DNA of 64,000 nucleotides, taken from the NCBI GenBank assembly GCA_052034955.1, contig JBPOHZ010000003.1:659-64658 (forward strand), in the 5' to 3' direction. The position numbers were made by a program, and so were the translations under genes. This document shows, in pieces, positions 44,871 to 54,261 of the stretch. Each line of letters begins with the position of its first letter. Within the stretch, counting starts at the first letter, position 1. Under the pieces are notes generated by a model. The model was not told the origin of the DNA. It saw nothing but the letters and a program-made list of their open reading frames with translations, and searched no databases. This DNA is from Candidatus Saccharimonadota bacterium. GTDB lineage: Bacteria > Patescibacteriota > Saccharimonadia > Saccharimonadales > AWTP1-31.

Positions 44871-46547
44871 ATGGCAGTTAGCCAAATCGCGCCCGAAAAA
44901 GATGAAGAGGCAGTATCGCCAAAGCTCATCAGTCCGGCCGCTCTAGGGGTGGTTGTTTTGCTGTTGTTTGATTTTTATTATCATCAGACCTTTAGCCAGA
45001 ACCCAGTTTTGGTTCTTGGGTTAGCCGGTTTTTTAGCAGTTTTTGCGCTTAGCCACTTCATTCCTTTTCTAAAGTTTGGAAAGGCCCATTCATTCTACCT
45101 TTACGCTTACCACTGGCTATTGGCCTTTACCTTAATGTTTATTGTGCCAACCCTATCGCACTATCTGTACTTGTGGGTAATGCTGATGTATCTGGCCGAG
45201 TTCTTCTATCAAGCCAAAGGTATGATAATCAGTACGACCGCCCTATTGGTGACCATGATAATGGGGACTTTGTATCAGTACAATGGTATCAACCGTGAGC
45301 TGATGGTCAGATTAATCGGAGAGTTCTGTATTATTGTCGCCGTAAACTTGGTTATGACCAGGCTGGCATTCGGCAATCGTAAAAGACGAGCCGAGATGCA
45401 TCAAAAAGTTTTGCATGCCGAGCTTGAGCACGGACGACTCGTGGCTCTTATTAACTCCATGAGCGATGGGGTTATAGCTACTGACGAACACGGCAAAATA
45501 CTTAGCTATAACGCTGCGGCGCTGGATCTTCTAGACACCAACGTGACGCTCACCGGCCAGTTTATAAGTGACTACCTGATGGTTAGTAACTCTAAAGATG
45601 AGCCGGTAGATATTATGGATGTAGCCAACAAGACGAATTTCTTACAGCGCCTTAGTGACCTAAGCGTTAACTATGGTGACCATGACAAGGTGGCACTCGA
45701 CATAAATATTAGTCGAATATCTAAGTCAAATGTTTTAGCAAAGCAGCAAGGTTTTACATTCTTACTCCGCGATATTACCATGCAGAAATCATTAGACGAA
45801 GAGCGTGATTTATTTATTTCAGAAGTGAGTCACGAACTCCGCACGCCGTTAACTATTGCTGAAGGCGAGATGTCGATGGCAGTAATGTTGGCCGAGAAGC
45901 CCGAAGTAAAAATTGCCGACATCAAGAGCTCCGTCGAGAAAGCGCACGACCAGGTAGTATTCTTGGAAGATATGGTAAACGACCTCTCAGCCTTATCTCG
46001 TGCTCAGCGTGATGATAAAGGCATGGATATTGAAACCTTCGAGATAAATGACGTGCTCAAAGAACTAGAAGAGACTTACCAGCCCCAGGCATCTAAGAAG
46101 GGACTGTATCTTAAGGTGGACATAGCTCCGTCGCTGCCCAAACTCACAACTTGCCGGCTCTACTTCAGAGAGATCATGCAGAACTTTATTACTAATGCCA
46201 TAAAATATACCGATCAAGGTGGGATTACTGTAAAGGGCCAGGCTATCGATAGGGATAACGTTATTTTTAGCGTGGCCGATACCGGTGCTGGAATCTCGAA
46301 GAGTGAACAAGCCAAGGTCTATCAAAAGTTCTGGCGTTCAGAGGATCCGCTTACTCGCACAACTGGCGGCACGGGACTAGGCTTGTTTATTACGGCCAAA
46401 CTTGCTCAGCGTATTGGCGCCGAGCTTAAGCTCGAATCAAAGCTAAAAGAGGGTTCAACATTCTCTATAATCATGCCCGTCCAAGCTGTTAAGGATGTCG
46501 ATCAGAAGAACTTAGTTAATAACGAGGTTGCACATATCTTTGAGTAA
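44871..46547 (+). CDS. Canonical membrane sensor histidine kinase (multi-TM, PAS-like, HisKA, HATPase_c)
   Basis: About 5 N-terminal TM helices. PAS-like LINSMSDGVIATDEHGKILSYN. H-box FISEVSHELRTPL. N-box NAIKYTDQGG. G1 DTGAGI. G2 GGTGLGL. Confidence 0.9.
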   Translation: MAVSQIAPEKDEEAVSPKLISPAALGVVVLLLFDFYYHQTFSQNPVLVLGLAGFLAVFALSHFIPFLKFGKAHSFYLYAYHWLLAFTLMFIVPTLSHYLYLWVMLMYLAEFFYQAKGMIISTTALLVTMIMGTLYQYNGINRELMVRLIGEFCIIVAVNLVMTRLAFGNRKRRAEMHQKVLHAELEHGRLVALINSMSDGVIATDEHGKILSYNAAALDLLDTNVTLTGQFISDYLMVSNSKDEPVDIMDVANKTNFLQRLSDLSVNYGDHDKVALDINISRISKSNVLAKQQGFTFLLRDITMQKSLDEERDLFISEVSHELRTPLTIAEGEMSMAVMLAEKPEVKIADIKSSVEKAHDQVVFLEDMVNDLSALSRAQRDDKGMDIETFEINDVLKELEETYQPQASKKGLYLKVDIAPSLPKLTTCRLYFREIMQNFITNAIKYTDQGGITVKGQAIDRDNVIFSVADTGAGISKSEQAKVYQKFWRSEDPLTRTTGGTGLGLFITAKLAQRIGAELKLESKLKEGSTFSIIMPVQAVKDVDQKNLVNNEVAHIFE

Positions 46548-47351
46548 TTAGTGACGAATGAGTTTACTAATAGAATAACCGAGTCCAATTATTCCAAAGC
46601 CGATACCTAAGAACACTCCTATGGCTGTGGCTTGACTATCAACAGGGAAGGTTGGCACCAATATATACCCCAGTGAACTAACTATAAAGCCAAGGGCTAC
46701 GCTGCGTATTTTTACCTTTTGCTTTAACTCTGCAGCGCTATCGGCTCGACTCCAGAAATAAATGCCGATGCATACCAAAGATAGTCCGCCTAGCGCGCTA
46801 CATATTTGATAAATAACTGATTGTGTATAGAACATGGTTAACCTGCCGGATTCACTTAGGCCTACGCGCACGGCGTAAGGCGGGCTGAGACTTCTAAAGA
46901 AAGCTTCTATGGTTCCGACGGCAAAGGTAGCTACGGCGGCAAACTTGGCAATATTAGAGGCAAGTGGGCGGTTAGGCAGGAAGGCACGAATACAGATTTG
47001 GGCAAGCAATAAGAATAAACTATATGCACAGATATCAGACAGCAAGGTAGAAACGCTCAGCAATTGCTGATCTTGGGTAAATACTACCGGGATCCATAAG
47101 AAAGCTGTTGCTAAAGACCCCAACAGGGCGGCCCAGCCCAACATCTTGCCTGTAATATTATTATTGTAACGATTACGCATTAAAGTATCGTAAGCAAAAG
47201 CAGCCATAATCGGTGTGCCAATTAAGTTATGAATGGTATTAATAGGTATTTCCATAAGGATTTTCATACCATTATACCTTAATGTGGAGTAATCTATGTT
47301 TCGCGGTTGTAACGGGATACCGTAGGCATGCATAGTGGACATTGTTATCAA
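46548..47351 (-). CDS. Polytopic membrane protein of unknown function (about 7 TM)
   Basis: A 267-aa hydrophobic ORF. No rhodopsin-type RYxDW or DxxxK motifs were found. Confidence 0.6.
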   Translation of the reverse strand: MITMSTMHAYGIPLQPRNIDYSTLRYNGMKILMEIPINTIHNLIGTPIMAAFAYDTLMRNRYNNNITGKMLGWAALLGSLATAFLWIPVVFTQDQQLLSVSTLLSDICAYSLFLLLAQICIRAFLPNRPLASNIAKFAAVATFAVGTIEAFFRSLSPPYAVRVGLSESGRLTMFYTQSVIYQICSALGGLSLVCIGIYFWSRADSAAELKQKVKIRSVALGFIVSSLGYILVPTFPVDSQATAIGVFLGIGFGIIGLGYSISKLIRH

Positions 47352-47382
47352 CTACAACTTTTAGCTATGTTATGCTTATTTT

Positions 47383-47775
47383 ATGAATGAAATATTTAGA
47401 AAATTCTCGGCTCGTGTCTCTCAAGTAGTGGGTTCGGCTCGCTCCTTTTTTGTAGCCATTAGTATTATTGTTATTTGGGCTACCACCGGCCCGATCTTTG
47501 GCTTCTCGGATACCTGGCAGTTAATAATTAACACCGGAACGACCATAGTTACTTTTCTTATGGTTTTTGTAATTCAGAACACTCAGAACAGGGATGCCAA
47601 GAGCATGCGCCTACAGCTAGACGAGATTATTCAGAGCATGAAGAGTGCAAACAACAAATATTTAGATCTAGACGATGTTAGTGACGAAGAACTAAATCAC
47701 CTCGAAGAGCACTTTCGTCAGCTGCACAAGAAGATCGAGATCCATCACATGCGGCGCAAGGCTGCCAAAAAATAG
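47383..47775 (+). CDS. Low-affinity iron permease family protein (PF04120-like)
   Basis: F..S..VS...GS...F..A..II..W...GP.FGFSDTWQL.INT.TTI.TFLMVF.IQNTQNRD is the characteristic family pattern. Confidence 0.75.
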   Translation: MNEIFRKFSARVSQVVGSARSFFVAISIIVIWATTGPIFGFSDTWQLIINTGTTIVTFLMVFVIQNTQNRDAKSMRLQLDEIIQSMKSANNKYLDLDDVSDEELNHLEEHFRQLHKKIEIHHMRRKAAKK

Positions 47776-47847
47776 TGTAGCTTTGTCATTGCCAGAACAG
47801 GGGTAATATGTTACCATTTCCAAGTTACTTTTCTTAAAGTCTAACGT

Positions 47848-47924
47848 GGGCCAGTAGCTCAGCTGGTTAGAGCACCTGCCTCTTAAGCAGGGTGTCGAGG
47901 GTTCGAGTCCCTCCTGGCCCTCCA
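47848..47924 (+). tRNA. tRNA-Lys (anticodon CTT), CCA encoded
   Basis: Hand-folded cloverleaf: acceptor GGGCCAG/CTGGCCC, D arm GCTC-AGCTGGTTA-GAGC, anticodon stem CCTGC/GCAGG with loop CT-CTT-AA, variable region GTGTC, T arm GAGGG-TTCGAGT-CCCTC, then T-CCA. Confidence 0.95.
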
Positions 47925-48092
47925 AATAAAATGCCTCAGCAAAGCTGGGGCTTTTTCTTTGGTAGAGTGGGCTAGAACCCGAGACAGCAAGAGCGAAGCG
48001 ATTGCGTGTCGAGGGTTCGGTCGACAAGCTCGCTCGCAGAAGCTTGCTTCGAGAACGGGCGCAGTCGTGAGGTTGTCCCTCCTGGCCCTCCA
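47925..48092 (+). repeat. 168-nt noncoding unit, copy A: terminator, TGGTAGAGT box, about 118-nt GC-rich segment, exact copy of the tRNA-Lys 3' end including CCA
   Basis: It is bounded by the 19-nt direct repeat GTCCCTCCTGGCCCTCCAA (47907-47925 and 48075-48093). Copy B, 501 nt downstream, differs at 2 positions. It contains two partial copies of the tRNA T-arm (GTGTCGAGGGTTCG and GTCGTGAGGTTGTCCCTCC..). Confidence 0.9.
47933..47956 (+). terminator. Hairpin plus T-run after tRNA-Lys (first part of 168-nt unit A)
   Basis: GCCTCAGC-AAA-GCTGGGGC (one G-U pair) is followed by TTTTT. Confidence 0.7.
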
Positions 48093-48139
48093 ATACGCTA
48101 ATGCTTGCAAATTCACCAAATAGTCGTAGTATTGGCATT

Positions 48140-48382
48140 ATGAATATGATAACCCCAGAATTAGATATTAGGCATGAAGGAGTGGACCTGAGCCCACCTT
48201 CGTACGATTGGTATAAATATGTGGTAGATCGTGATATTACAGAAGTCGTTAGACTTGAGGGTATGAACGACTACTTACTCGCTGAGGTAACGCTAGAAAG
48301 TCTAGAGAGATTAAGCCAAAGATATCCTGAGCATAATACTCGCTATGCAGGGGAGCTTGCACTCGCTGGCTCGGTCAACTAG
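48140..48382 (+). CDS. Cassette ORF 1, hypothetical 80-aa protein
   Basis: ATG at 48140 lies 7 nt after TAGTAT (48127-48132). The ORF-track start 48101 lies within or adjacent to the repeat. No motif recognised. Confidence 0.45.
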   Translation: MNMITPELDIRHEGVDLSPPSYDWYKYVVDRDITEVVRLEGMNDYLLAEVTLESLERLSQRYPEHNTRYAGELALAGSVN

Positions 48383-48394
48383 TTAAAGCTAATT

Positions 48395-48426
48395 TAGTTG
48401 TTATAGCTTCCACGATGGCCCTCCAA
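48395..48426 (+). repeat. Cassette-end repeat R2 (32 nt)
   Basis: TAGTTGTTATAGCTTCCACGATGGCCCTCCAA. The last 11 nt are identical to the tRNA-Lys 3' end. It starts 12 nt after the ORF stop. Confidence 0.8.
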
Positions 48427-48593
48427 ATAAAATGCCTCAGCAAAGCTGGGGCTTTTTCTTTGGCAGAGTGGGCTAGAACCCGAGACAGCAAGAGCGAAGC
48501 GATTGCGTGTCGAGGGTTCGGTCGGCAAGCTCGCTCGCAGAAGCTTGCTTCGAGAACGGGCGCAGTCGTGAGGTTGTCCCTCCTGGCCCTCCA
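48426..48593 (+). repeat. 168-nt noncoding unit, copy B
   Basis: It is identical to copy A except T>C in the putative -10 (TAGAGT>CAGAGT) and A>G (GTCGAC>GTCGGC). It ends in GTCCCTCCTGGCCCTCCA (core 48576-48594). Confidence 0.9.
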
Positions 48594-48608
48594 ATCCCGA
48601 ACATGTTT

Positions 48609-48635
48609 AAACTCCTCACTCCGAGGAGTTTTTTT
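48609..48635 (+). terminator. Inter-cassette hairpin plus T-run (module M3)
   Basis: AAACTCCTC-ACTCC-GAGGAGTTT then TTTT, followed by TTTGGTATACT (extended -10) and the ATG at 48654. Confidence 0.65.
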
Positions 48636-48653
48636 GTTTGGTATACTTATGCT

Positions 48654-49286
48654 ATGTCACATGCAAATGAAAGCGATATTCCTCGTAATGGAATGCGAGC
48701 CGAGGGTGAGCAGGACAGGCCGGAAGAGTATAAGGCTGCCAGAGATAACCTAGTAATATCGGTAAGGGGTTTGCTTGATGAGGTTGAGCGGCTCCAGGCG
48801 GATGGGCTGCCATTGGGTGAGTTCGGACTAATTTATGATACACCTGGTATCAGCAGGATAGTCCTAGAGGATCCTTTCGCAAAAGTTAGTACAGGCATAA
48901 TGGCTGAGAGAACAAAGCCTACCGGAGCCTATCTTTATCATGATTCTAAAACGGGCCAAAGAAGTTTAGTAGTGGTAAGGCCAGATAAAGTCTTAGAAAT
49001 TTTAGATAATCCAATGGAGCAACAAGTTGCCGGGCCTGAAGCTGGTTATGAAGGCGTAAGTTCTTCGATACTAACTTCTTTTAATGAGCGTCAACCAGAT
49101 GGATCGTACATTGGAGCTCAGGTGCGAGCTTCCGGAAAGTTCTCAATTAAGAAGTTTGATGGTGGGAGCGATAGTTATCATACGGGCATATCACTAACTC
49201 ATAACCCAGAGCAGATAGAGATGGTCGGAGATATGTGGACGGATATAGAGGCTCAGTTACTCAAACAACCTCCAGCACATAGCTAG
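48654..49286 (+). CDS. Cassette ORF 2, hypothetical 210-aa protein
   Basis: The ORF-track start 48507 would read through repeat unit B and the hairpin. The ATG at 48654 lies 6 nt after TGGTATACT. No motif recognised. Confidence 0.6.
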   Translation: MSHANESDIPRNGMRAEGEQDRPEEYKAARDNLVISVRGLLDEVERLQADGLPLGEFGLIYDTPGISRIVLEDPFAKVSTGIMAERTKPTGAYLYHDSKTGQRSLVVVRPDKVLEILDNPMEQQVAGPEAGYEGVSSSILTSFNERQPDGSYIGAQVRASGKFSIKKFDGGSDSYHTGISLTHNPEQIEMVGDMWTDIEAQLLKQPPAHS

Positions 49287-49311
49287 CAATTAATCCCACT
49301 GAACCATACTG

Positions 49312-49343
49312 TAGTTGCGATAAGCTCCACCATGGCCCTCCAA
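49312..49343 (+). repeat. Cassette-end repeat R4 (32 nt)
   Basis: TAGTTGCGATAAGCTCCACCATGGCCCTCCAA. Confidence 0.8.
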
Positions 49344-49369
49344 TCTGGTTATGTTAATATATTTGCAGT

Positions 49370-49507
49370 ATGTATAATTTCCTTGCGCACAGCATACCAA
49401 ACTCAGTTTTTCTTCTCGCACTACTCGCTGGTTTATTTGCATTGATTATTCGGTCTTGGAAACAGCATCAGCGTTTCAAGAATTGGAAGAAGCTGAACCA
49501 GAAGTAA
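49370..49507 (+). CDS. Cassette ORF 3, 45-aa single-TM peptide (below the ORF-track cutoff)
   Basis: MYNFLAHSIPNSVFLLALLAGLFALIIRSWKQHQRFKNWKKLNQK. TGTTAATAT ends 9 nt upstream of the ATG. Repeat R5 follows 12 nt after the stop. Confidence 0.4.
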   Translation: MYNFLAHSIPNSVFLLALLAGLFALIIRSWKQHQRFKNWKKLNQK

Positions 49508-49519
49508 CGACCGGCAATC

Positions 49520-49551
49520 TAGTTCCACTAGATTCCACTATGGCCCTATAG
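49520..49551 (+). repeat. Cassette-end repeat R5 (32 nt, diverged 3' end)
   Basis: TAGTTCCACTAGATTCCACTATGGCCCTATAG. Confidence 0.65.
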
Positions 49552-49702
49552 TTCCGGTCATATTTAAACACTTCGCCCTGAGGAGTCGTTGAGTCTAAAT
49601 ATATAGCTTACGCACTTTTTAAGCTGTGACGAATAAGAGTTTCCTGGTTGCGCAATTAACGACGTTGTGGACTTCTTGTCAGGCATTGTCTATGATGTCC
49701 TA

Positions 49703-50395
49703 ATGAGTTTAACCGTTCCGGCCCCTGCTAACATCTTTTCTCCCGAGGCTCCTCGTTCGGACGAGCTGGTTGGTGGCGCCCAATTTGATTCAACCGATTT
49801 CTTTTTATCTGATCACTGTACTCGACCTATGGCACCTTCGCAAAGTCCATGGGAAGCATTATTGCGCAAGGCATTCGCAGCTCAAATAGAGCAAAATCCT
49901 ACTATCGACATGATACATTCAACTCAACATATTAGGTACGGGCTGGTTCCTTTCAGTTCGGTATTGAGCGATAGTGACTTTGCTTTGGTTAGTGCATTTC
50001 CAATCGCAAGATCACTTCTTACCCAAGCTAGCAATACTCAGTGGAGTGGTCCTCGACCCAATACTTACGAGTCTAACTATAATGCGCTCGTTGCCTCATG
50101 GCTGTATCAAAAAGCGAATGGATCAGACCAGTTTGGCCGTGCAGCCATGTCGATTCAAGAATCGGGCATTATTGGCCCCGAGGACTCTGTGCTTGCTAGC
50201 TACATACTGGCATTGACGGTTGGATCTTGCGACGAAAGCGGTATACCGTTACATGATGGGGGATTTGGTTTTGTTGATGTTGCAAAAAAAGTACGGGAAG
50301 GAGCTATCCTAAATCGTTGGGATTTGCAGCAACACTATCCCGGTCCAAATGCAGCTGAGTTAAGTCTTATTCCAGATACATCCACGGGTTTCTAG
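49703..50395 (+). CDS. Cassette ORF 4, hypothetical 230-aa protein
   Basis: ATG at 49703 lies 6 nt after TATGAT (49691-49696). The ORF track uses the GTG at 49667. No motif recognised. Confidence 0.6.
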   Translation: MSLTVPAPANIFSPEAPRSDELVGGAQFDSTDFFLSDHCTRPMAPSQSPWEALLRKAFAAQIEQNPTIDMIHSTQHIRYGLVPFSSVLSDSDFALVSAFPIARSLLTQASNTQWSGPRPNTYESNYNALVASWLYQKANGSDQFGRAAMSIQESGIIGPEDSVLASYILALTVGSCDESGIPLHDGGFGFVDVAKKVREGAILNRWDLQQHYPGPNAAELSLIPDTSTGF

Positions 50396-50404
50396 GGTTA
50401 GCGT

Positions 50405-50437
50405 TAGTTCCAATAGCTTCCACGATGGTCCCCTTCC
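50405..50437 (+). repeat. Cassette-end repeat R6 (33 nt)
   Basis: TAGTTCCAATAGCTTCCACGATGGTCCCCTTCC. Confidence 0.7.
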
Positions 50438-50448
50438 TGAACTTTATT

Positions 50449-50473
50449 AAACTCCTCATTAAGAGGAGTTTTT
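50449..50473 (+). terminator. Inter-cassette hairpin plus T-run (module M6, homologous to M3)
   Basis: AAACTCCTC-ATTAA-GAGGAGTTT then TT, followed by TTTGGTATAAT and the ATG at 50493. Confidence 0.65.
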
Positions 50474-50492
50474 CGTTTGGTATAATCCAAGC

Positions 50493-51320
50493 ATGTTGAG
50501 CGGCGAAATAATTCATGTTGGTGAGGCTCAGGGCGGAATTTCTGCTCATGTTGAGCATGTAGAGATAGATGGCACACCATTTGTATTAAAGACAGACACT
50601 GAGTTTGATGTAAAAGGTGAAGCGTTTTTCCAAGGACAGCTCAAAGAGCTCGGGCTACCTCATGTTGAGATGTATGAGCATCCGAATCTTCGTCCGGATC
50701 AAATCCTGATGCAGCAAGTAGATGGCAAATCGTTGAATGGCCCAAATTTCACCAACCAAAATCTTTTGAAACTTGGGCAGACATTAGCAACAATCCATTC
50801 TAGAAAGTTTGACCAACTCTATGGTCTAGACGAACAGGGACGGTTGCATCCAAACGACTGGCTGGATTTTGTAGCAAATATGAAGAACCGAGCCAGTAAG
50901 ACAGCGCAACATTTTGATGGCGCTTCTAGGGCCGTGGAGCGGGCAACGCAAAAACTAAGCGTGCAGACTCCAGATACTTTTGTTATGTGTCACGGTGATT
51001 TGCACGGTAACAATGTGTTCTGTACTGATGAGGGATTGGTGCTCTTTGATAATAATGCCAGTGATATTGTCGCTACGCCACAATACGACTTGGCGGTTAT
51101 CTTTGGTGAAGTTATGCCCGGTTATCGTTACGGTGCTGAAAACGCCCAGGGTACAAGGGACTATGAGCGTATGGAAGCCTTTCTTGAAGGCTACGGCAGG
51201 CTGCCTGTAGACTTCGAAGAGACTATAGACGACTACGTTTTACTGAGGCTACTGGCTCGTTATCCAAACCAATTCGTTCCGCACCAGGATGCGACGATTG
51301 ACTTACTCATAGCCAAGTAG
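50493..51320 (+). CDS. Cassette ORF 5, APH/choline-kinase-family phosphotransferase
   Basis: Brenner motif VMCHGDLHGNNVF followed by LVLFDNN. An N-terminal nucleotide-binding lobe with a ..PFVLKTD.. lysine region. Length 275 aa. Confidence 0.8.
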   Translation: MLSGEIIHVGEAQGGISAHVEHVEIDGTPFVLKTDTEFDVKGEAFFQGQLKELGLPHVEMYEHPNLRPDQILMQQVDGKSLNGPNFTNQNLLKLGQTLATIHSRKFDQLYGLDEQGRLHPNDWLDFVANMKNRASKTAQHFDGASRAVERATQKLSVQTPDTFVMCHGDLHGNNVFCTDEGLVLFDNNASDIVATPQYDLAVIFGEVMPGYRYGAENAQGTRDYERMEAFLEGYGRLPVDFEETIDDYVLLRLLARYPNQFVPHQDATIDLLIAK

Positions 51321-51323
51321 GCT

Positions 51324-51355
51324 TAGTTGCGACAATAGCAAAGACGGTCCTTCAA
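51324..51355 (+). repeat. Cassette-end repeat R7 (32 nt, diverged)
   Basis: TAGTTGCGACAATAGCAAAGACGGTCCTTCAA. It starts 3 nt after the stop. Confidence 0.55.
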
Positions 51356-51366
51356 TTTGACTTGAA

Positions 51367-51395
51367 AACTATACCATTGTCCGGTATAGTTTTTT
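51367..51395 (+). terminator. Inter-cassette hairpin plus T-run
   Basis: AACTATACC-N7-GGTATAGTT is a perfect 9-bp stem followed by TTTT. The ATG of the next ORF is at 51397. Confidence 0.6.
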
Positions 51396-51396
51396 C

Positions 51397-51753
51397 ATGT
51401 CTGAAAGAGTTGGCGAATTAGCCTACATTATTATCGATAGTATAGACCCCGAAGGGCTTGCTTCTTTTTGGGGTTCGGTCTTAGGGCTAGAGATATCGGA
51501 GTGCTCCGAACCATATGTTGATCTTGCACCTTCTGCAGAGCACGCTCCGGTGTTAAGTTTTCAGAGAGTACCAGAGGCCAAAGAAGGGAAGAATCGGCTC
51601 CATCTTGATATTAAAGTTGGAGACCTAGATGTTGCTACCGCACAAATACAAACACTGGGCGGAAAATTAGTCCAAGAATGTGTAGAGCCACCTTATGAAT
51701 GGCGAGTGATGGCTGACCCTGAAGACAATGAGTTTTGTATAGTCACGAACTAG
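51397..51753 (+). CDS. Cassette ORF 6, VOC/glyoxalase-bleomycin-resistance-fold protein
   Basis: A 118-aa protein with LAYIIIDSIDPEGLASFWGSVLG..., RLHLDIKV and ..WRVMADPEDNEFCIV, typical of glyoxalase-like domain proteins. Confidence 0.8.
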   Translation: MSERVGELAYIIIDSIDPEGLASFWGSVLGLEISECSEPYVDLAPSAEHAPVLSFQRVPEAKEGKNRLHLDIKVGDLDVATAQIQTLGGKLVQECVEPPYEWRVMADPEDNEFCIVTN

Positions 51754-52075
51754 CTTGAAGAACAAATATTTTTCTTCGTTCCAGTAGTTCCCATGTTGGC
51801 CAATTAAATCGAATAATTGCCACATATGATGTTGACGATATTATTAAGGAAAGAAGTTCAATTATCTCCCAGACTTGGCAGAGACGATAATTACTCGCAA
51901 ACGACATAATTGACAGATATGCTTAAGTATAGTATAAATAATCTGACGTAAATGTCATGTGTTGATCCGCATATCTGTATCTGGTCGCTTGGATACGCGG
52001 GGAGCAAGTAGCGAAACCGGGATATAAATAATCTTTGTTAGTTACCATAATTTATAAAAAGTATGGAGTATTGAT

Positions 52076-52306
52076 ATGCAGAACGAATGCCCAAGACCAG
52101 TCGAAACTGGTGCTGATTCTTATGCCCAGATCACGGCTGGCGTTTTAGCAAGAGAGGTCGTCCGAAGATGCTTAGCGCCGATAAGCCCGCTTTTACAAAC
52201 AGGTTCTACACATAATACCGATGCAGAACCATTTGGTATGCCAATGAACGCAAGACGAAGGCGGTTATTTGAAGAATGGGCATCAACTAACGCCAGCGAT
52301 TCTTAG
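52076..52306 (+). CDS. Hypothetical small protein (76 aa)
   Basis: An ORF with GGAG 9 nt upstream, following a 322-nt AT-rich spacer. No motif recognised. Confidence 0.4.
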   Translation: MQNECPRPVETGADSYAQITAGVLAREVVRRCLAPISPLLQTGSTHNTDAEPFGMPMNARRRRLFEEWASTNASDS

Positions 52307-52383
52307 GAATAGGCACGTATTTGGGGAGTCTTAAATTAAGCATCGGTTGTGATAACCGTTGTTGTATGGCATAATCCACATCT

Positions 52384-52677
52384 ATGCCAAGACAATATGA
52401 ACCAGAAATAATTGGATTTGTGAGCAAATCGCTGCACGATGCGTTCCATCATACCTCTAATCAAGTTGATGCTGTCGGACCTGCATACAGTTCACCCCAG
52501 AGAACATATGACCCTTCGGAAAGATTAAGTTTGGCCTGTGAACTTGTCGATGCAATACTAGAAGCTAGACTGGACTGCGGAGATAGAAACGTACTAGCGG
52601 GGGTCATAGAAACTGCTTTACAAATGGGAGAAGCGGCCGCCACCCATCGCACAAATAGACAGCTTTTTGGTCGCTAA
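52384..52677 (+). CDS. Hypothetical small protein (97 aa)
   Basis: TGGCATAAT ends 8 nt upstream of the ATG. The ORF is followed by a weak R-like motif, TCCAGAATGGCTACACCCAA (52685-52704). Confidence 0.45.
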   Translation: MPRQYEPEIIGFVSKSLHDAFHHTSNQVDAVGPAYSSPQRTYDPSERLSLACELVDAILEARLDCGDRNVLAGVIETALQMGEAAATHRTNRQLFGR

Positions 52678-52781
52678 ACTCCTCTCCAGAATGGCTACAC
52701 CCAAGAACTATAAATTGTGCCCCGAAGTCGTCTTTGGCCTTATACTTACCGGCAGACTTTTGCTTTGGGTATACTAGATGC

Positions 52782-53609
52782 ATGCCTCATTCCTCCCCAA
52801 GAGTATTTATTCTGTCTGGGTATCGTATGACCTCACAAATGGTATGTGAAGCAATAAGCAAATCGCTCGATGCCAGTATTGGTCTGTATAGAATTCCTCG
52901 TTCCCGGTGGTTGGGTTGGTTATGGTATAGGCTTAAAAGATATGGAATACTAACCTTGCTTGGACACATCGGGCTTTCGCTATATCTTAGACTTCGATCC
53001 AGGCTACTTCGATTAAATCGACAGGCAAGGGATATAACAAGTCAGCACAAGCTACCAGAAGGGGTATTAAGTATTCAGTCCCAGGATGCACTTCTGGACA
53101 AGATTAGCCAGGCTGACGTTATTGTGATGATCGAGCCATTCCGCTTACCAAGGTCGGTCTATTCTAGTAAGTCGACCATATTTTTGGAGGTTGTCTGGGG
53201 TAGGGTGCCTTTTTATGTTGGAGATAGTGCTGGCTGGTGGGAAAAAGTGATCGAAGATGGAGCTAATACTTGCGTAAGTCTAGTCCAAAGATCTGGCGAG
53301 GCATCGGATTTAACATTGCTGGCTTCTTGGGAAGTTAAGCTTCGGGCCAGCGACACTATCGGAAGGGTCCGCCTAAGGCAGGCAGAAGTGCTCGCCCGGC
53401 AACTCCCGGAATTTTTGAAGAATCATATTGCCAGTCCAGCGATAATCAACAAAAAGCAGTCCATAAAAACAGACGGTTTTAGTTACATATCGCCGACTCT
53501 TTGGGAATATCTCCGATTTAATAAGGTAAAAGTAGTCCCCCAGACAGTTATTAATCGACGCAGAAATCGAATTACCTATAAACTAAGGTCATATGAGCAG
53601 CAAAAGTAA
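52782..53609 (+). CDS. Hypothetical protein (weakly formyltransferase-N-terminal-like)
   Basis: ATG at 52782 lies 6 nt after TATACT (52770-52775). The ORF-track TTG at 52734 is less likely. The N-terminal RVFILSGYRMTS.. Rossmann-like start is only suggestive. Confidence 0.55.
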   Translation: MPHSSPRVFILSGYRMTSQMVCEAISKSLDASIGLYRIPRSRWLGWLWYRLKRYGILTLLGHIGLSLYLRLRSRLLRLNRQARDITSQHKLPEGVLSIQSQDALLDKISQADVIVMIEPFRLPRSVYSSKSTIFLEVVWGRVPFYVGDSAGWWEKVIEDGANTCVSLVQRSGEASDLTLLASWEVKLRASDTIGRVRLRQAEVLARQLPEFLKNHIASPAIINKKQSIKTDGFSYISPTLWEYLRFNKVKVVPQTVINRRRNRITYKLRSYEQQK

Positions 53610-54261
53610 CAAATATAAAACCATTCCGTTAGCAATTATTGTATTTATTGTTCTATTTGTGCACGACACTAATCTTTATCCAAACTTGTCGATCGTTCAT
53701 CGATTTATCTTAAGCTCTCTAAGATTATTGCTTTTGGCTGTCCCGGTGATTCTCGCTAATTTTCTAAACCTACCAAAGTCGCGATCGGTTAGGGTGGCTA
53801 TTTTTGTTGCACTAATGCTGTTCATCCCATATACCCTCTACAGTGTCACAGAAGTAAGGCATATAGCAGAGTTATGTCCGGTCGATTCTGCAACTTACTT
53901 TACCGATAACTGCAGTCTTTCCAGTTGGCAACTCCTGCCGCCCTTAGCATATGCAATTATTGGCATAGCTGCATATGGCATGTGTTTACGGCGCTTAAAA
54001 AAACACCTTCTTAACTGGCAACTTGGGTTACTAGTACTGTATATCTCGCTAGCTACACAGTTCGCGTTGCAGAGTAGATTAAATATATGGAGTATTGCTA
54101 CTCAGCCCGCAGATCTAGTGAGGGAGGTGGCTATGGCGGTAAAGACTTGGGCATTCTGGCTGAACAGCACGGCATTCATGCTTTTATTTACGGCCATAAC
54201 GATCGCTATTGTTGGCTTGACTAACCTCAGGGCTGCTACTAAGCCTAGGCAGCCATTGTAG
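53593..54261 (+). CDS. Polytopic membrane protein, unknown function
   Basis: A 222-aa protein with about 6 TM helices. It overlaps the upstream gene by 17 nt. Confidence 0.55.
   Translation: MSSKSNKYKTIPLAIIVFIVLFVHDTNLYPNLSIVHRFILSSLRLLLLAVPVILANFLNLPKSRSVRVAIFVALMLFIPYTLYSVTEVRHIAELCPVDSATYFTDNCSLSSWQLLPPLAYAIIGIAAYGMCLRRLKKHLLNWQLGLLVLYISLATQFALQSRLNIWSIATQPADLVREVAMAVKTWAFWLNSTAFMLLFTAITIAIVGLTNLRAATKPRQPL

Follow-up and report, generated by a model that had tools for sequence, protein, structure and literature searches.

Cis-mobilizable elements (CIMEs) lack recombination genes, retain att sites and lie in tandem with an integrase-bearing element, which can excise together with them via an alternative att site. 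CIMEs of the Streptococcus ICESt1/ICESt3 kind, and their accretion, have reportedly been described by Pavlovic in 2004 and Bellanger in 2011, and PMC3146451 and PMC5704250 cite the concept; we know of no CIME system with arrays of at least eight single-gene units. SCCmec-type islands use CcrAB serine recombinases at rlmH/orfX. The ssrA-GIs of Dehalococcoides are tandem islands 3' of a tRNA-like gene, with direct repeats of its 3' end and, just upstream of each repeat, a conserved motif that does not match the gene (McMurdie et al., 2011, PMC3146451). Their ~540-aa serine recombinase, DsiB, is encoded on the reverse strand beside attL by an ORF that extends over the RNA gene's 3' end; for islands lacking the integration module, cis-mobilization by accretion was proposed, and a parallel with SCCmec was drawn (PMC3146451). 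In Prochlorococcus, flexible genes of small genomes are gathered in tRNA-side islands where serial integrations push older elements inward and partial tRNA repeats and decayed remnants occur throughout (bioRxiv 10.1101/2020.12.28.424599). The tycheposons combine integration and replication modules with cargo, and tyrosine recombinases occur in 910 of 937 elements of this type; regular single-gene cassettes bearing a non-tRNA arm of their own are not reported there (bioRxiv 10.1101/2020.12.28.424599).

Architecture of the tRNA-Lys locus

The window is the whole 64-kb stretch of DNA analysed here. ARAGORN and Rfam agree on the predicted tRNA-Lys(CTT) gene at 47848, which anchors an array of short units, most of them ending in a 32-nt motif, R (TAGTTGCAATAGCnTCCACGATGGCCCTCCAA; matrix scores in bits).

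47848..47924, +: tRNA-Lys(CTT), array anchor (ARAGORN; Rfam RF00005, 72.2 bits)
47914-47924, +: tRNA-Lys 3' end TGGCCCTCCA, putative common recombination core
47925..48094, +: copy A of repeat D1, an ORF-less unit with homologues in L100, L121 and L124
47933-47951, +: terminator hairpin of D1 copy A
48075-48093, +: tRNA 3' end copied exactly (19 nt), closing D1 copy A
48095..48426, +: cassette 1, ending in R2 (48395-48426, 47.8 bits)
48140-48382, +: cassette 1 ORF, 80 aa, no Pfam family
48427..48595, +: second copy of D1 (B), with 99% identity to copy A
48434-48452, +: terminator of D1 copy B
48576-48594, +: tRNA 3'-end copy closing D1 copy B
48596..49343, +: cassette 2, ending in R4 (49312-49343, 45.2 bits)
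48609-48631, +: cassette 2 left motif and terminator hairpin (D3, D4)
48642-48647, +: cassette 2 -10 box, TATACT
48654-49286, +: cassette 2 ORF, 210 aa
49344..49551, +: cassette 3, ending in R5 (49520-49551, 29.5 bits)
49370-49507, +: cassette 3 ORF, 45 aa, hydrophobic
49552..50436, +: cassette 4, ending in R6 (50405-50436, 27.8 bits)
49552-49590, +: cassette 4 copy of D3
49703-50395, +: cassette 4 ORF, 230 aa, no Pfam family
50437..51355, +: cassette 5, ending in R7 (51324-51355, 17.5 bits; highest null score 11.0)
50449-50471, +: cassette 5 terminator
50459-50486, +: cassette 5 promoter, TTAAGA-16-TATAAT
50493-51320, +: cassette 5 APH-family phosphotransferase, 275 aa (Pfam PF01636)
51356..51807, +: cassette 6, with a possible decayed R at 51776-51807 (not significant)
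51397-51753, +: cassette 6 Glyoxalase_6 protein, 118 aa (Pfam PF18029)
51808..52730, +: distal variable region without recognisable R
51946-52031, +: c-di-GMP-II riboswitch (Rfam)
52076-52306, +: 76-aa ORF with the c-di-GMP-II riboswitch
52384-52677, +: 97-aa ORF of the distal variable region
52815..54261, +: conserved distal flank marking the array end; genes of 264 aa and 222 aa (DUF1361, Pfam)

All six predicted cassette ORFs (80, 210, 45, 230, 275 and 118 aa) are present, the motif beginning 3-25 nt past their stops; a -10 box was located in cassette 2 and a promoter sequence in cassette 5. Homologues of the 210-aa protein lie inside the tRNA-Lys arrays of two other contigs, L121 and L125. 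The distal variable genes have no counterpart in L125, unlike the two flank genes, which are syntenic with L125 9055-10417 (55% and 63% identity by tblastn). No recombinase was found in the window, either by a Pfam search of 40 ORFs or by a tblastn search for the large serine recombinase (LSR) family described below.

The 19-nt copies of the tRNA end recorded earlier at 48075 and 48576 are exact, and both are ends of a 180-nt duplication, D1, identified by a repeat finder (47915-48094 and 48416-48595, copies 99% identical). This duplication was absent from the original prediction. Copy A contains a degenerate tRNA-Lys-like sequence with an insert of ~55 nt in its T loop; it matched no Rfam family.

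The R motif

A 32-column matrix of R was trained on 40 sites, all from other organisms, and compared with the maxima of 100 Markov-shuffled windows (mean 0.6 bits, highest 11.0). The top five of ~128,000 positions were 48395, 49312, 49520, 50405 and 51324, all above the shuffled maximum, and R2, R4, R5, R6 and R7 are thus real sites. Their scores drop steadily with distance from the tRNA, from 47.8 to 17.5 bits, in keeping with the decay suggested previously. Two weaker derivatives had also been proposed. The best register near 51785 (51776-51807) ranks sixth in the window and lies where an R is expected, 22 nt past a stop codon; at -2.4 bits it is inside the null range and not significant. 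The other, 52685-52704, scored -28 bits and is unsupported.

R2, R4, R5 and R6 were grouped by the repeat finder as one 37-nt family (D2), and only these four carry the core TTCCACNATGGNCC with 0-1 mismatch in the 64 kb; at up to two mismatches it matches 10 times (4.1 expected). Copies within the array share 68-78% identity. The idea that R copies the tRNA 3' end holds for its last 11 nt only, the other 21 nt being an element-specific arm. R folds no better than shuffled sequence, cannot form T-stem pairing and matched no Rfam family. A conserved block with a hairpin terminator and a -10 box (repeats D3/D4) lies 3' of R. Across arrays the sequence after R is a right motif, T.CG.TTATGCTTAAA, followed by the hairpin terminator and -10 box; this motif, badly preserved in the window itself, also occurs directly 3' of tRNA-Lys in arrays without an integrase.

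Related arrays and the LSR family

Scanning metagenomes with the 18 fixed bases of R returned 25 contigs, and in about 19 of the 25 the unfixed positions agree too (G6, C7, A9 and T28-A31 at 77-96%) and the same right motif follows the match. The array-bearing contigs are Saccharibacteria-type metagenome contigs, with R in same-strand arrays spaced at 0.5-2.7 kb and adjoining tRNA-Lys(CTT) or tRNA-Lys(TTT) (L093, L100, L102, L104, L106, L108, L113, L115, L121 and L125). Along L106, L115 and L125 the R scores are non-monotonic; the L106 array holds toxin-antitoxin cassettes. Scattering of R behind genes genome-wide would have refuted the original prediction. No R was found outside the array in the 64-kb window, and R had zero matches in 15 further Saccharibacteria loci (~234 kb in total), so it is not a genome-wide repeat.

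Identical cassettes have different neighbours, with the break exactly after ...CCCTCCAA, at the 3' edge of R. L096, L108 and L111 share 100% identity as far as ...GGCCCTCCAA and diverge beyond it, and L121 and L124 differ upstream of the core but agree completely from there on. The window and L125 have the two distal flank genes and a single cassette in common; this cassette, present also in L121, has a different position in each. A locus invariant across relatives would likewise have been fatal to the prediction, and array content was instead almost wholly replaced between the window and L125, the flanking genes being kept. Neither a circular single cassette nor a circular LSR element with an internal cassette was seen.

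Directly abutting tRNA-Lys(CTT) in related genomes is a gene for an LSR of ~555 aa (Pfam Resolvase, Recombinase and Zn_ribbon_recom) with Ser16, Arg14 and other residues invariant. In L011/L115, L116, L117, L118 and L120 it overlaps tRNA-Lys at the antisense 3' end, and the peptide from the antisense tRNA is the C-terminal end of 105 of 120 LSR homologues. The LSR elements measure 7-11 kb and end in the R motif in 3 genomes; in L115, L117 and L118 the element spans tRNA to R with no further core between. One element (L120) also carries a 294-aa Phage_integrase gene. L093 keeps a remnant of the LSR C-terminus beside the tRNA, followed by the first cassette (one cargo gene and R), which indicates that full elements do decay. 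Contig L126 (8,060 nt) has a 30-nt terminal overlap and an ORF open through the junction, from which we infer a circle of 8.03 kb. Its single att site consists of an R-type arm (39.8 bits), TGGCCCTCCA and an LSR-side arm, and L126-type junctions were assembled in 3 samples. Judged from sequence alone, these joined arms and core would constitute attP, which shows none of the dyad symmetry that relates R arm to right motif in the cassettes.

Proposed mechanism and alternative explanations

We propose that the att-flanked mini-cassettes form an array without an integrase, which site-specific recombination at the tRNA-Lys 3' end has assembled and rearranged, most likely through an LSR acting in cis or in trans, and we give this proposal an even chance of being right. 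The original suggestion, either serial insertion at an att site in the tRNA or an array of integron type, is supported by the conservation of R, the LSR elements, the breakpoints and the turnover. The candidate enzyme would be the Saccharibacteria-specific LSR family on ~7-11 kb circular integrative elements; its link to R is positional only, and catalysis is not shown. The common core is predicted to be TGGCCCTCCA(A), made up of the acceptor-stem 3' strand of the tRNA and CCA, and in R the 21 nt on its left side, TAGTTGCAATAGCnTCCACGA, would serve as the P arm (element side) of attP in the LSR elements. Because the right motif lies directly after tRNA-Lys in integrase-free arrays, it behaves as the chromosome-side (B') arm, and each R plus right motif would thus be an attR-type junction. 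A cassette unit would comprise the right motif, a terminator, a promoter of its own, a single ORF that looks leaderless, and R. We infer that an LSR element integrates at the tRNA via attP x attB, that its attL may pair with any downstream attR on excision, taking neighbouring cassettes along, and that exit by the nearest attR in a new cell would leave these beside the tRNA. New cassettes would therefore enter tRNA-proximally, and older ones would drift distally while their R sites decay. Cassettes in the window are either fossils by now or still awaiting an LSR, supplied in cis or in trans.

Some observations count against this reading. The window, the only part of the genome analysed, has no LSR or other recombinase. 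The attP x attB and attL x attR reactions cover cassette carriage and deposition only, and first acquisition of both boundary motifs by a single gene is unexplained. Variation at internal positions (L096, L108 and L111) is not predicted if exchange is only tRNA-proximal. The attP without dyad symmetry, the lack of cassette-carrying LSR circles and the non-monotonic R scores add to these.

Immobile, dead remnants could also be left by serial full-size LSR insertions at tRNA-Lys and subsequent deletion, the differences between genomes being independent insertions and deletions. Such a history is unlikely but deserves serious attention: L093 has an LSR C-terminal remnant followed by one cargo gene and R, R quality in the window drops away from the tRNA, the window has no integrase, and the same account is given for tycheposon islands (bioRxiv 10.1101/2020.12.28.424599). 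It is difficult to reconcile, however, with units that all open with right motif, terminator and promoter right after the previous R, an arrangement improbable from random deletion, or with the same cassettes having different neighbours and breaks exactly at the core. Moreover, a single LSR integration leaves an LSR-type arm after the tRNA and attB is lost, so repeated integration there needs something more. Quite unlikely, in our view, is action on the core and right motif by a host Xer-type tyrosine recombinase or an integrase elsewhere, with LSR elements merely using the same tRNA target, as in a system resembling IMEX elements or pdif modules. Core and right motif do read like a 28-bp dif, [ATGGCCCTCCA][6-7 nt][TTATG(C/T)TTAAA], the right motif resembling what we take to be the XerD arm, TTATGTTAAAT; the spacing is mostly 6 nt, and breakpoints fall at the arm/spacer border. 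A host-encoded enzyme would account for arrays without an adjoining recombinase, and the L120 element has its Phage_integrase gene. Nevertheless, the spacing ranges from 5 to 7 nt with unconserved spacer sequence, the two putative arms are asymmetric, and the window preserves the right motif badly. The best-conserved part, the 21-nt R arm, lies outside the 28-bp site, and its identity with the P arm of the LSR attP is left unexplained.

Saccharibacteria are reported to be naturally competent, and R plus right motif (~80 nt) might be mere homology anchors for natural transformation and RecA. Boundary blocks kept between lineages would suit such exchange, which we regard as very unlikely: breakpoints fall sharply where the 11-nt core ends and are not scattered through the homologous block, R identity of 68-78% within an array makes a poor RecA substrate, and the LSR circle and integrated elements point to a site-specific route. 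That R is no recombination site at all, but a REP-like intergenic repeat, a terminator-associated element or a tRNA-like 3' UTR processing signal, is scarcely credible and already largely refuted. Its position between stop codons and terminators and the mimicry of the tRNA 3' end by its last 11 nt would be expected of such an element; its confinement to the array in 64 kb, its absence from the ~234 kb of related DNA, the lack of T-stem pairing, distinctive folding or an Rfam match, and its place in the putative attP of a circular integrase element would not.

Comparison with known systems

The original statement that no described system has a comparable architecture was too strong, because the Dehalococcoides ssrA islands (PMC3146451) follow nearly the same logic, as do tycheposons (bioRxiv 10.1101/2020.12.28.424599). 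The non-gene motif upstream of each ssrA-GI repeat resembles the R arm, and DsiB and the LSR are both serine recombinases whose ORF overlaps the 3' end of an RNA gene, from which we do not infer homology. The ssrA-GIs differ in target (tmRNA T loop and 20-bp repeat, versus tRNA-Lys acceptor strand and 11-nt core), in size (multi-gene and many kb, versus 0.2-1.1 kb and usually one gene) and in host phylum, and they do not have the fixed terminator-promoter-ORF-site layout. CIMEs, like the cassettes, lack recombination genes and keep att sites, whereas their systems involve tyrosine integrases, conjugative transfer and multi-kb remnants. Tycheposon islands are likewise tRNA-anchored, in small genomes, with older elements pushed away; their repeats are plain partial tRNAs of ~40 nt instead of a dedicated non-tRNA arm.

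Integrons (IntI, attI and attC cassettes) resemble these arrays in function and layout: cassettes point the same way, mostly hold a single gene and terminate in a recombination site, insertion takes place beside a fixed anchor site, content is highly variable, and toxin-antitoxin (L106) and resistance-type (APH) genes occur. Unlike integrons, the arrays have no IntI tyrosine recombinase, a tRNA gene as anchor and cassettes with their own promoters, and R is defined by sequence rather than as a folded single-strand hairpin. SCCmec resembles them in that large serine recombinases insert elements where a conserved gene has its 3' end, in tandem composites parted by direct repeats and in some units having no ccr genes; it differs in its protein-coding target, 3-60 kb units and two recombinases together.

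Saccharibacteria are ultra-small bacteria in which, to our knowledge, few mobile elements are known. Because the site ending each cassette recurs as one of the two arms in the attachment site of a small circular serine-integrase element, the locus looks like a gene-capture platform in this group. We conclude that, among known systems, the Dehalococcoides ssrA islands, CIMEs acquired by accretion and tycheposons come closest, and that the array belongs to a known kind in which the regular single-gene unit is what is new.

Organization of the tRNA-Lys locus

The window covers part of the chromosome in a Saccharibacteria-type genome, and on the reading of ORF translations we take its housekeeping genes to include those for FtsH, LepA, DnaK, DnaJ, GrpE, MurA, MurB and SHMT. 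The nearest relative that the searches returned, an uncultured Candidatus Saccharibacteria MAG, shares 70% amino acid identity with the window in the iron-permease gene beside the tRNA. A scan of genome collections keyed on this widely transferred gene yielded one syntenic relative (L011, also represented by L115). The sole other public contig of the strain (L001, Logan SRR34217545) is 99.9% identical to window positions 46455-47877 and stops inside tRNA-Lys, consistent with assembly having broken off where the array is repeated or heterogeneous.

The plus-strand ORFs predicted downstream of the tRNA (80, 210, 45, 230, 275 and 118 aa) are present, and Pfam families were detected in only two of the six, an APH-type phosphotransferase and a Glyoxalase_6 protein. 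A repeat finder placed R2, R4, R5 and R6, copies of the 32-nt R site that closes each cassette, in one 37-nt family. It also returned two features absent from the original prediction: a 180-nt duplication (D1; 47915-48094 and 48416-48595, 99% identical), and a second conserved block directly 3' of R, in which a short motif precedes a hairpin terminator and a -10 box (repeat families D3 and D4).

Features of the tRNA-Lys locus in the window
47848-47924, tRNA-Lys(CTT)
47925-48094, D1 unit
48427-48595, D1 unit
47933, 48434, 48609 and 50449, terminators (consensus scan)
48642-48647, -10 box TATACT, within 48642-48656 (consensus match)
50481-50486, TG-extended TATAAT (consensus scan)
51946-52031, c-di-GMP-II riboswitch inside the variable array, upstream of a 76-aa ORF (52076-52306)

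Every cassette comes with a terminator of its own and with a -10 box ending 6 nt before the ATG, as judged by consensus matches only. Because the -10 boxes are so placed and Shine-Dalgarno sequences are absent (48642-48656 and 50481-50495), the cassette genes look leaderless, which suggests, from sequence alone, that their mRNAs may be leaderless. The predicted lack of a recombinase was borne out: a Phage_integrase or other recombinase domain was found in none of 40 window ORFs scanned. Significant R sites delimit cassettes 1-5 of the window, none of which encodes a recombinase, and the same is true of the units in contig L106. A second c-di-GMP-II riboswitch lies in the array of contig L125 (1628-1711), upstream of a 162-aa ORF. 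Since riboswitches occur in both arrays, riboswitch-controlled small ORFs seem to recur as array cargo.

D1 units were also located in other contigs.

D1 units outside the window
L121, 1402-1578 and 2314-2528
L124, 1-130
L100, 5140-5318

The D1 unit contains no ORF and consists of a terminator followed by degenerate tRNA-Lys-like sequence, a ~55-nt insert in the T-loop and an exact tRNA 3' end. Its T-stem halves covary with the resident tRNA (GAGGG/CCCTC versus CTGGG/CCCAG), and the hairpin in the insert shows compensatory changes. No Rfam family matched D1 or R at gathering or permissive thresholds. D1 may represent either a duplicated tRNA in decay, its attB-like end retained, or a tRNA-like RNA.

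Significance and distribution of the R site

Both window strands were scanned with a position matrix built from 40 R sites, all in organisms other than the source. R2, R4, R5, R6 and R7, the copies proposed originally, are the window's five top positions (47.8, 45.2, 29.5, 27.8 and 17.5 bits, respectively), and match quality drops steadily with distance from the tRNA, as had been claimed. In 100 shuffled windows the best score averaged 0.6 bits and never exceeded 11.0. The two weaker derivatives proposed further downstream did not hold up: near 51785 the best register (51776-51807, 22 nt past the glyoxalase stop codon) ranks sixth at -2.4 bits and is not significant, and 52685-52704 scores -28 bits and is unsupported. 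All significant R sites in the 64 kb are confined to 48.4-51.4 kb. Scatter of R behind unrelated genes, which would have refuted the original prediction, was looked for and not seen in the 64-kb window and ~234 kb of other sequence. Since no R match occurs in 15 other Saccharibacteria loci (~234 kb) or in 65 loci of other phyla, R is not a genome-wide repeat; a REP-like or generic intergenic repeat was rejected on its confinement to the array in the window and its absence from those ~234 kb.

Scanning public metagenome contigs with TAGTTNNNNTANNNTCCACNATGGNCC returned 25 contigs. In ~19 of these the positions left unspecified agree too (G6, C7, A9 and T28-C-C-A31, at 77-96%), and the match is followed by TCCAA, usually then by T.CG.TTATGCTTAAA and a hairpin terminator.

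R had been described as a copy of the tRNA 3' end. This is correct for its last 11 nt (TGGCCCTCCAA), which match this tRNA, and not for the remainder. The tRNA of some relatives ends ...TCCCAGATGGCCCTCCA, nearer to the ...TCCACGATGGCCCTCCA of R; on this resemblance, R looks like an old, diverged copy of the 3' part of a tRNA that is now conserved in its own form. A tRNA-like fold of R was rejected: no T-stem pairing is possible, and single-stranded DNA and RNA folds are unexceptional. Single-stranded DNA folds of seven R sites gave z-scores of -1.2 to +0.7 against shuffled sequences, with the sole exception of R5 (-3.6). R is conserved in sequence, not by hairpin structure.

Related arrays and their turnover

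A profile search recovered more diverged, same-strand copies of R, spaced 0.5-2.7 kb apart, in contigs L093, L096, L101, L106, L108, L111, L113, L114 and L115. The array is headed by tRNA-Lys(CTT), or tRNA-Lys(TTT) in two contigs, in L093, L100, L102, L104, L106, L113 and L115. The clearest array is that of L106, where eight units of 0.5-1.1 kb stand behind one tRNA-Lys, each running from the right motif through a terminator, promoter and ORF(s) to R. Its cargo includes a histidine phosphatase, an Asp/Glu racemase and a second tRNA-Lys, and presumably, by our own reading of the sequences, a HIT-like protein and a toxin-antitoxin pair. FolD lies on one side of this array and ordinary chromosomal genes on the other, and no recombinase is present nearby. 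Complete extra copies of tRNA-Lys(CTT) lie inside the arrays of L106 (5294-5370) and L108 (1377-1452), so a cassette can bring a whole tRNA-Lys and hence a fresh target site. In the 4.6-kb contig L111, from which tRNA-Lys is absent, a tRNA-Gln (2064-2138) is followed by an array of an APH-like cassette and a membrane-protein cassette.

Breakpoints between contigs fall at the core. In L096, L108 and L111, all from one study, a common cassette is 100% identical up to ...GGCCCTCCAA and then gives way to three unrelated sequences. L124 and L121 are identical from the core on, through the D1 unit and a homologue of cassette 2 (210-aa ORF and R4), and differ upstream of the core, where one has a tRNA and the other a D1-type end. 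Comparison of junctions places the crossover within TGGCCCTCCAA.

Array content also turns over. Homologues of the cassette-2 protein (53-66% identity) occur in only a few Saccharibacteria and, where their context is readable, in tRNA-Lys arrays at differing positions and with differing neighbours (window, L121-L124 and L125). When the cassette proteins of the window were compared with all loci, homologues were found only for this protein and for two flank genes. Invariance of the locus across relatives, which would also have counted against the original prediction, was not seen, as the window and L125 share the flank but only one cassette. The two shared genes beyond the array (52815-54261) are 55% and 63% identical, and otherwise only cassette 2 is in common, which delimits the variable region of the window to 47.9 to ~52.7 kb.

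A large serine recombinase family at tRNA-Lys

In the syntenic relative (L011/L115), a 561-aa ORF on the opposite strand (L011 12246-13931) lies directly against the same tRNA-Lys and extends into it. Its product is a member of a large serine recombinase (LSR) family that numbers 597 proteins at E <= 1e-20. The 120 best homologues, which are from relatives and not from the window, contain the Resolvase, Recombinase and zinc-ribbon domains (PF00239, PF07508 and PF13408), and the catalytic-domain residues Ser16 and Arg14 are invariant in 31 LSR sequences. Among solved structures only 3G13 matches, and weakly. Identity to integrases in phage and plasmid collections is at most ~26% (~25% at best for phage), and a search of viral contigs with one LSR protein found no match. 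A scan of IMG/VR with TAGNTTCCACNATGGNCC gave nine matches, all dismissed as chance since they lack the flanking parts of R.

Four further members (58-66% identical) were located on contigs, and all four likewise overlap tRNA-Lys(CTT). Translated antisense tRNA forms the C-terminus (W-R-A-x-x-D-S-N-P-x-H) in 105 of the 120 best homologues, so the family is almost always seen integrated at this tRNA; three homologues end instead in antisense R (W-R-A-I-V...). The last ~13 residues thus differ between integrated (WRARRDSNPRH...) and excised (WRAIV...) forms, as the ORF reads through attL into the antisense tRNA (L011 and L116-L120), and this C-terminal switch might regulate the enzyme. In L093 a fragment of the LSR C-terminus lies between the tRNA and the first cassette, indicating that integrase-bearing elements decay in place.

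Attachment sites and a circular element

In LSR systems, crossover occurs at a central dinucleotide between imperfect inverted half-sites; attL and attR are hybrids, and attP combines the two element-side arms. The LSR element in L115, L117 and L118 begins at the tRNA and reaches an R motif after 6.7-11.4 kb, with no intervening copy of the core. On this basis we assign attL to the tRNA plus the LSR-type arm (a AGTTTCAGAAAC...AAAGCCTC hairpin) and attR to R plus the cassette-type right motif, the conserved chromosome-side block 3' of R. In these three contigs, and not within the 64-kb window, the element lies in tandem with cassette units at the same att site. Junctions in which the centre of the right motif is inverted (GCATAAGCA for GCTTATGC), directly against the core, were observed in L102 (345-360), L111 (150-170) and L118 (970-990).

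One of the homologues ending in W-R-A-I-V... is carried by L126 (Logan, SRR28494071), an 8,060-nt contig. Because its ends overlap by 30 nt and an ORF stays open across the junction, we consider L126 a circle of 8.03 kb. Its single att site (L126 6830-6895), TAGCTGCTACAGCATCTACGA-TGGCCCTCCA-GGAATCATATATTTGCG..., comprises an R-type arm (39.8 bits), the core and an LSR-type arm; the junction was assembled in three samples, and L129 has the same arrangement. This is the attP to be expected given the integrated copies, which makes the left 21 nt of R the P arm of the family's attP. The matching attB would be the tRNA-Lys 3' end with its TTATGCTTAAA flank. The circle encodes an HTH repressor, a BLIP-like protein, a DUF5659 protein, a replication-initiator-like protein and the LSR. 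Small conserved genes beside the LSR, such as that for the DUF5659 protein, are candidates for a directionality factor. With no capsid or terminase match in PHROGs the circle was not called a phage, and it may be a small integrative plasmid of Saccharibacteria. No L126 or L129 gene is homologous to the gene beside R in L115, so the circular form is not matched gene for gene to an integrated copy.

Which enzyme acts on the cassette sites

The comparisons establish the anatomy of the core, P arm, attL, attR and attP, the association of the LSR with the tRNA, the circular form, the breakpoints at the core and the turnover of content. The anatomy, breakpoints and turnover support the original interpretation of the locus as the product of site-specific insertion at a tRNA att site or an integron-like array. 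That the LSR is the enzyme acting on the cassette sites is inferred, as is catalysis. We likewise infer that cassettes travel by alternative pairing: attL would pair with one or another downstream attR site, co-excising cassette units with the helper element and moving them by canonical LSR reactions only. Such pairing, as proposed, would account for units that start with the chromosome-side motif and end with the element-side arm, for arrays without a resident integrase and for the better preservation of proximal sites. It does not explain how a first cassette forms or the variation at internal positions, and no circle carrying an internal cassette was found.

A different enzyme remains in play, and it is the sites themselves that give grounds for it. 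An imperfect dyad centred on GG|CC spans the R arm (GCAATAGCG) and the cassette right motif (CGCTTATGC), and the LSR attP lacks it. Xer/dif modules (IMEX, pdif) use a 28-bp dif-like site of two 11-bp arms and a 6-bp spacer; the core and right motif together are somewhat dif-like, and the right motif resembles a XerD arm. However, the spacing varies between 5 and 7 nt, nothing dif-like is seen in the left arm, and the window shows only weak versions of the motif. Returning to the LSR, we entertain only tentatively, and with more doubt than belief, an independently evolved integron-like system of single-gene cassettes, each with its own promoter and a dedicated ~50-bp site (R arm, core and right motif), in which the LSR of a small circular episome excises, captures and reinserts cassettes at tRNA-Lys.

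Implications and comparison with known systems

Genomes are tiny in Saccharibacteria and other CPR bacteria, and the ways in which accessory genes enter and leave them are poorly understood; to our knowledge, few mobile elements have been described for these bacteria. Here unrelated small genes are gathered in one hypervariable array, in many lineages, and the cargo includes kinase and phosphatase types, NUDIX, HIT and glyoxalase proteins, toxin-antitoxin pairs, membrane proteins and riboswitch-controlled ORFs. Through the array, this cargo is linked to a concrete recombination system that has a 32-nt site, a core of 11 nt and a candidate integrase family for which a circular form is known. 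If the LSR acts on these sites, it would account for strain-level variation in gene content of these episymbionts, equip Patescibacteria genetics with a naturally occurring landing pad and a new, divergent serine integrase complete with att pair, and show that integron-like platforms can arise from tRNA-targeting serine integrases. Were the integron-like system real, the tRNA-Lys array would be the main entry point for accessory genes in these ~1-Mb Saccharibacteria genomes.

In an integron, the gene for an IntI-type tyrosine recombinase adjoins the array, each attC site folds as an imperfect single-strand hairpin whose structure, not sequence, is conserved, and the promoterless cassettes rely on a common Pc promoter for expression. 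On all three counts the locus falls outside the integrons, as IntI and attC hairpins are absent and its cassettes bring promoters of their own. What it may still be is a working cassette system of integron-like character, with a serine integrase as the driving enzyme.

No description of such an array in Saccharibacteria or Patescibacteria was found in the literature searched, which excludes most subscription journals. The original remark that no comparable architecture had been described was too broad, since the ssrA islands of Dehalococcoides are a near precedent, and the nearest for the tRNA-Lys array (PMC3146451). These islands lie in tandem after tmRNA with 20-bp repeats of its 3' end and an adjacent conserved non-ssrA motif, and encode a reverse-strand serine recombinase of ~540 aa that overlaps the RNA gene; islands without an integration module were proposed to be cis-mobilizable (PMC3146451). 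A C-terminal read-through change like that of the LSR was noted there for DsiB as well. The cassettes resemble cis-mobilizable elements in being att-flanked and recombinase-free and, in relatives, in tandem with the LSR element. CIME accretion and tycheposon islands have an island-building logic in common with the tRNA-Lys array. Tycheposons are tyrosine-recombinase elements at seven specific tRNA/tmRNA genes of Prochlorococcus (bioRxiv 10.1101/2020.12.28.424599); membership was rejected, since the system here differs in recombinase (serine type), target (tRNA-Lys) and host (Saccharibacteria). Unlike ssrA islands, tycheposons and CIMEs, the array has single-gene units of 0.2-1.1 kb with their own terminator and promoter, a 32-nt site of which 11 nt are tRNA, a tRNA-Lys target and a differing host group. 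We conclude that the locus is best classed with integrase-driven tandem att arrays at tRNA-like genes.
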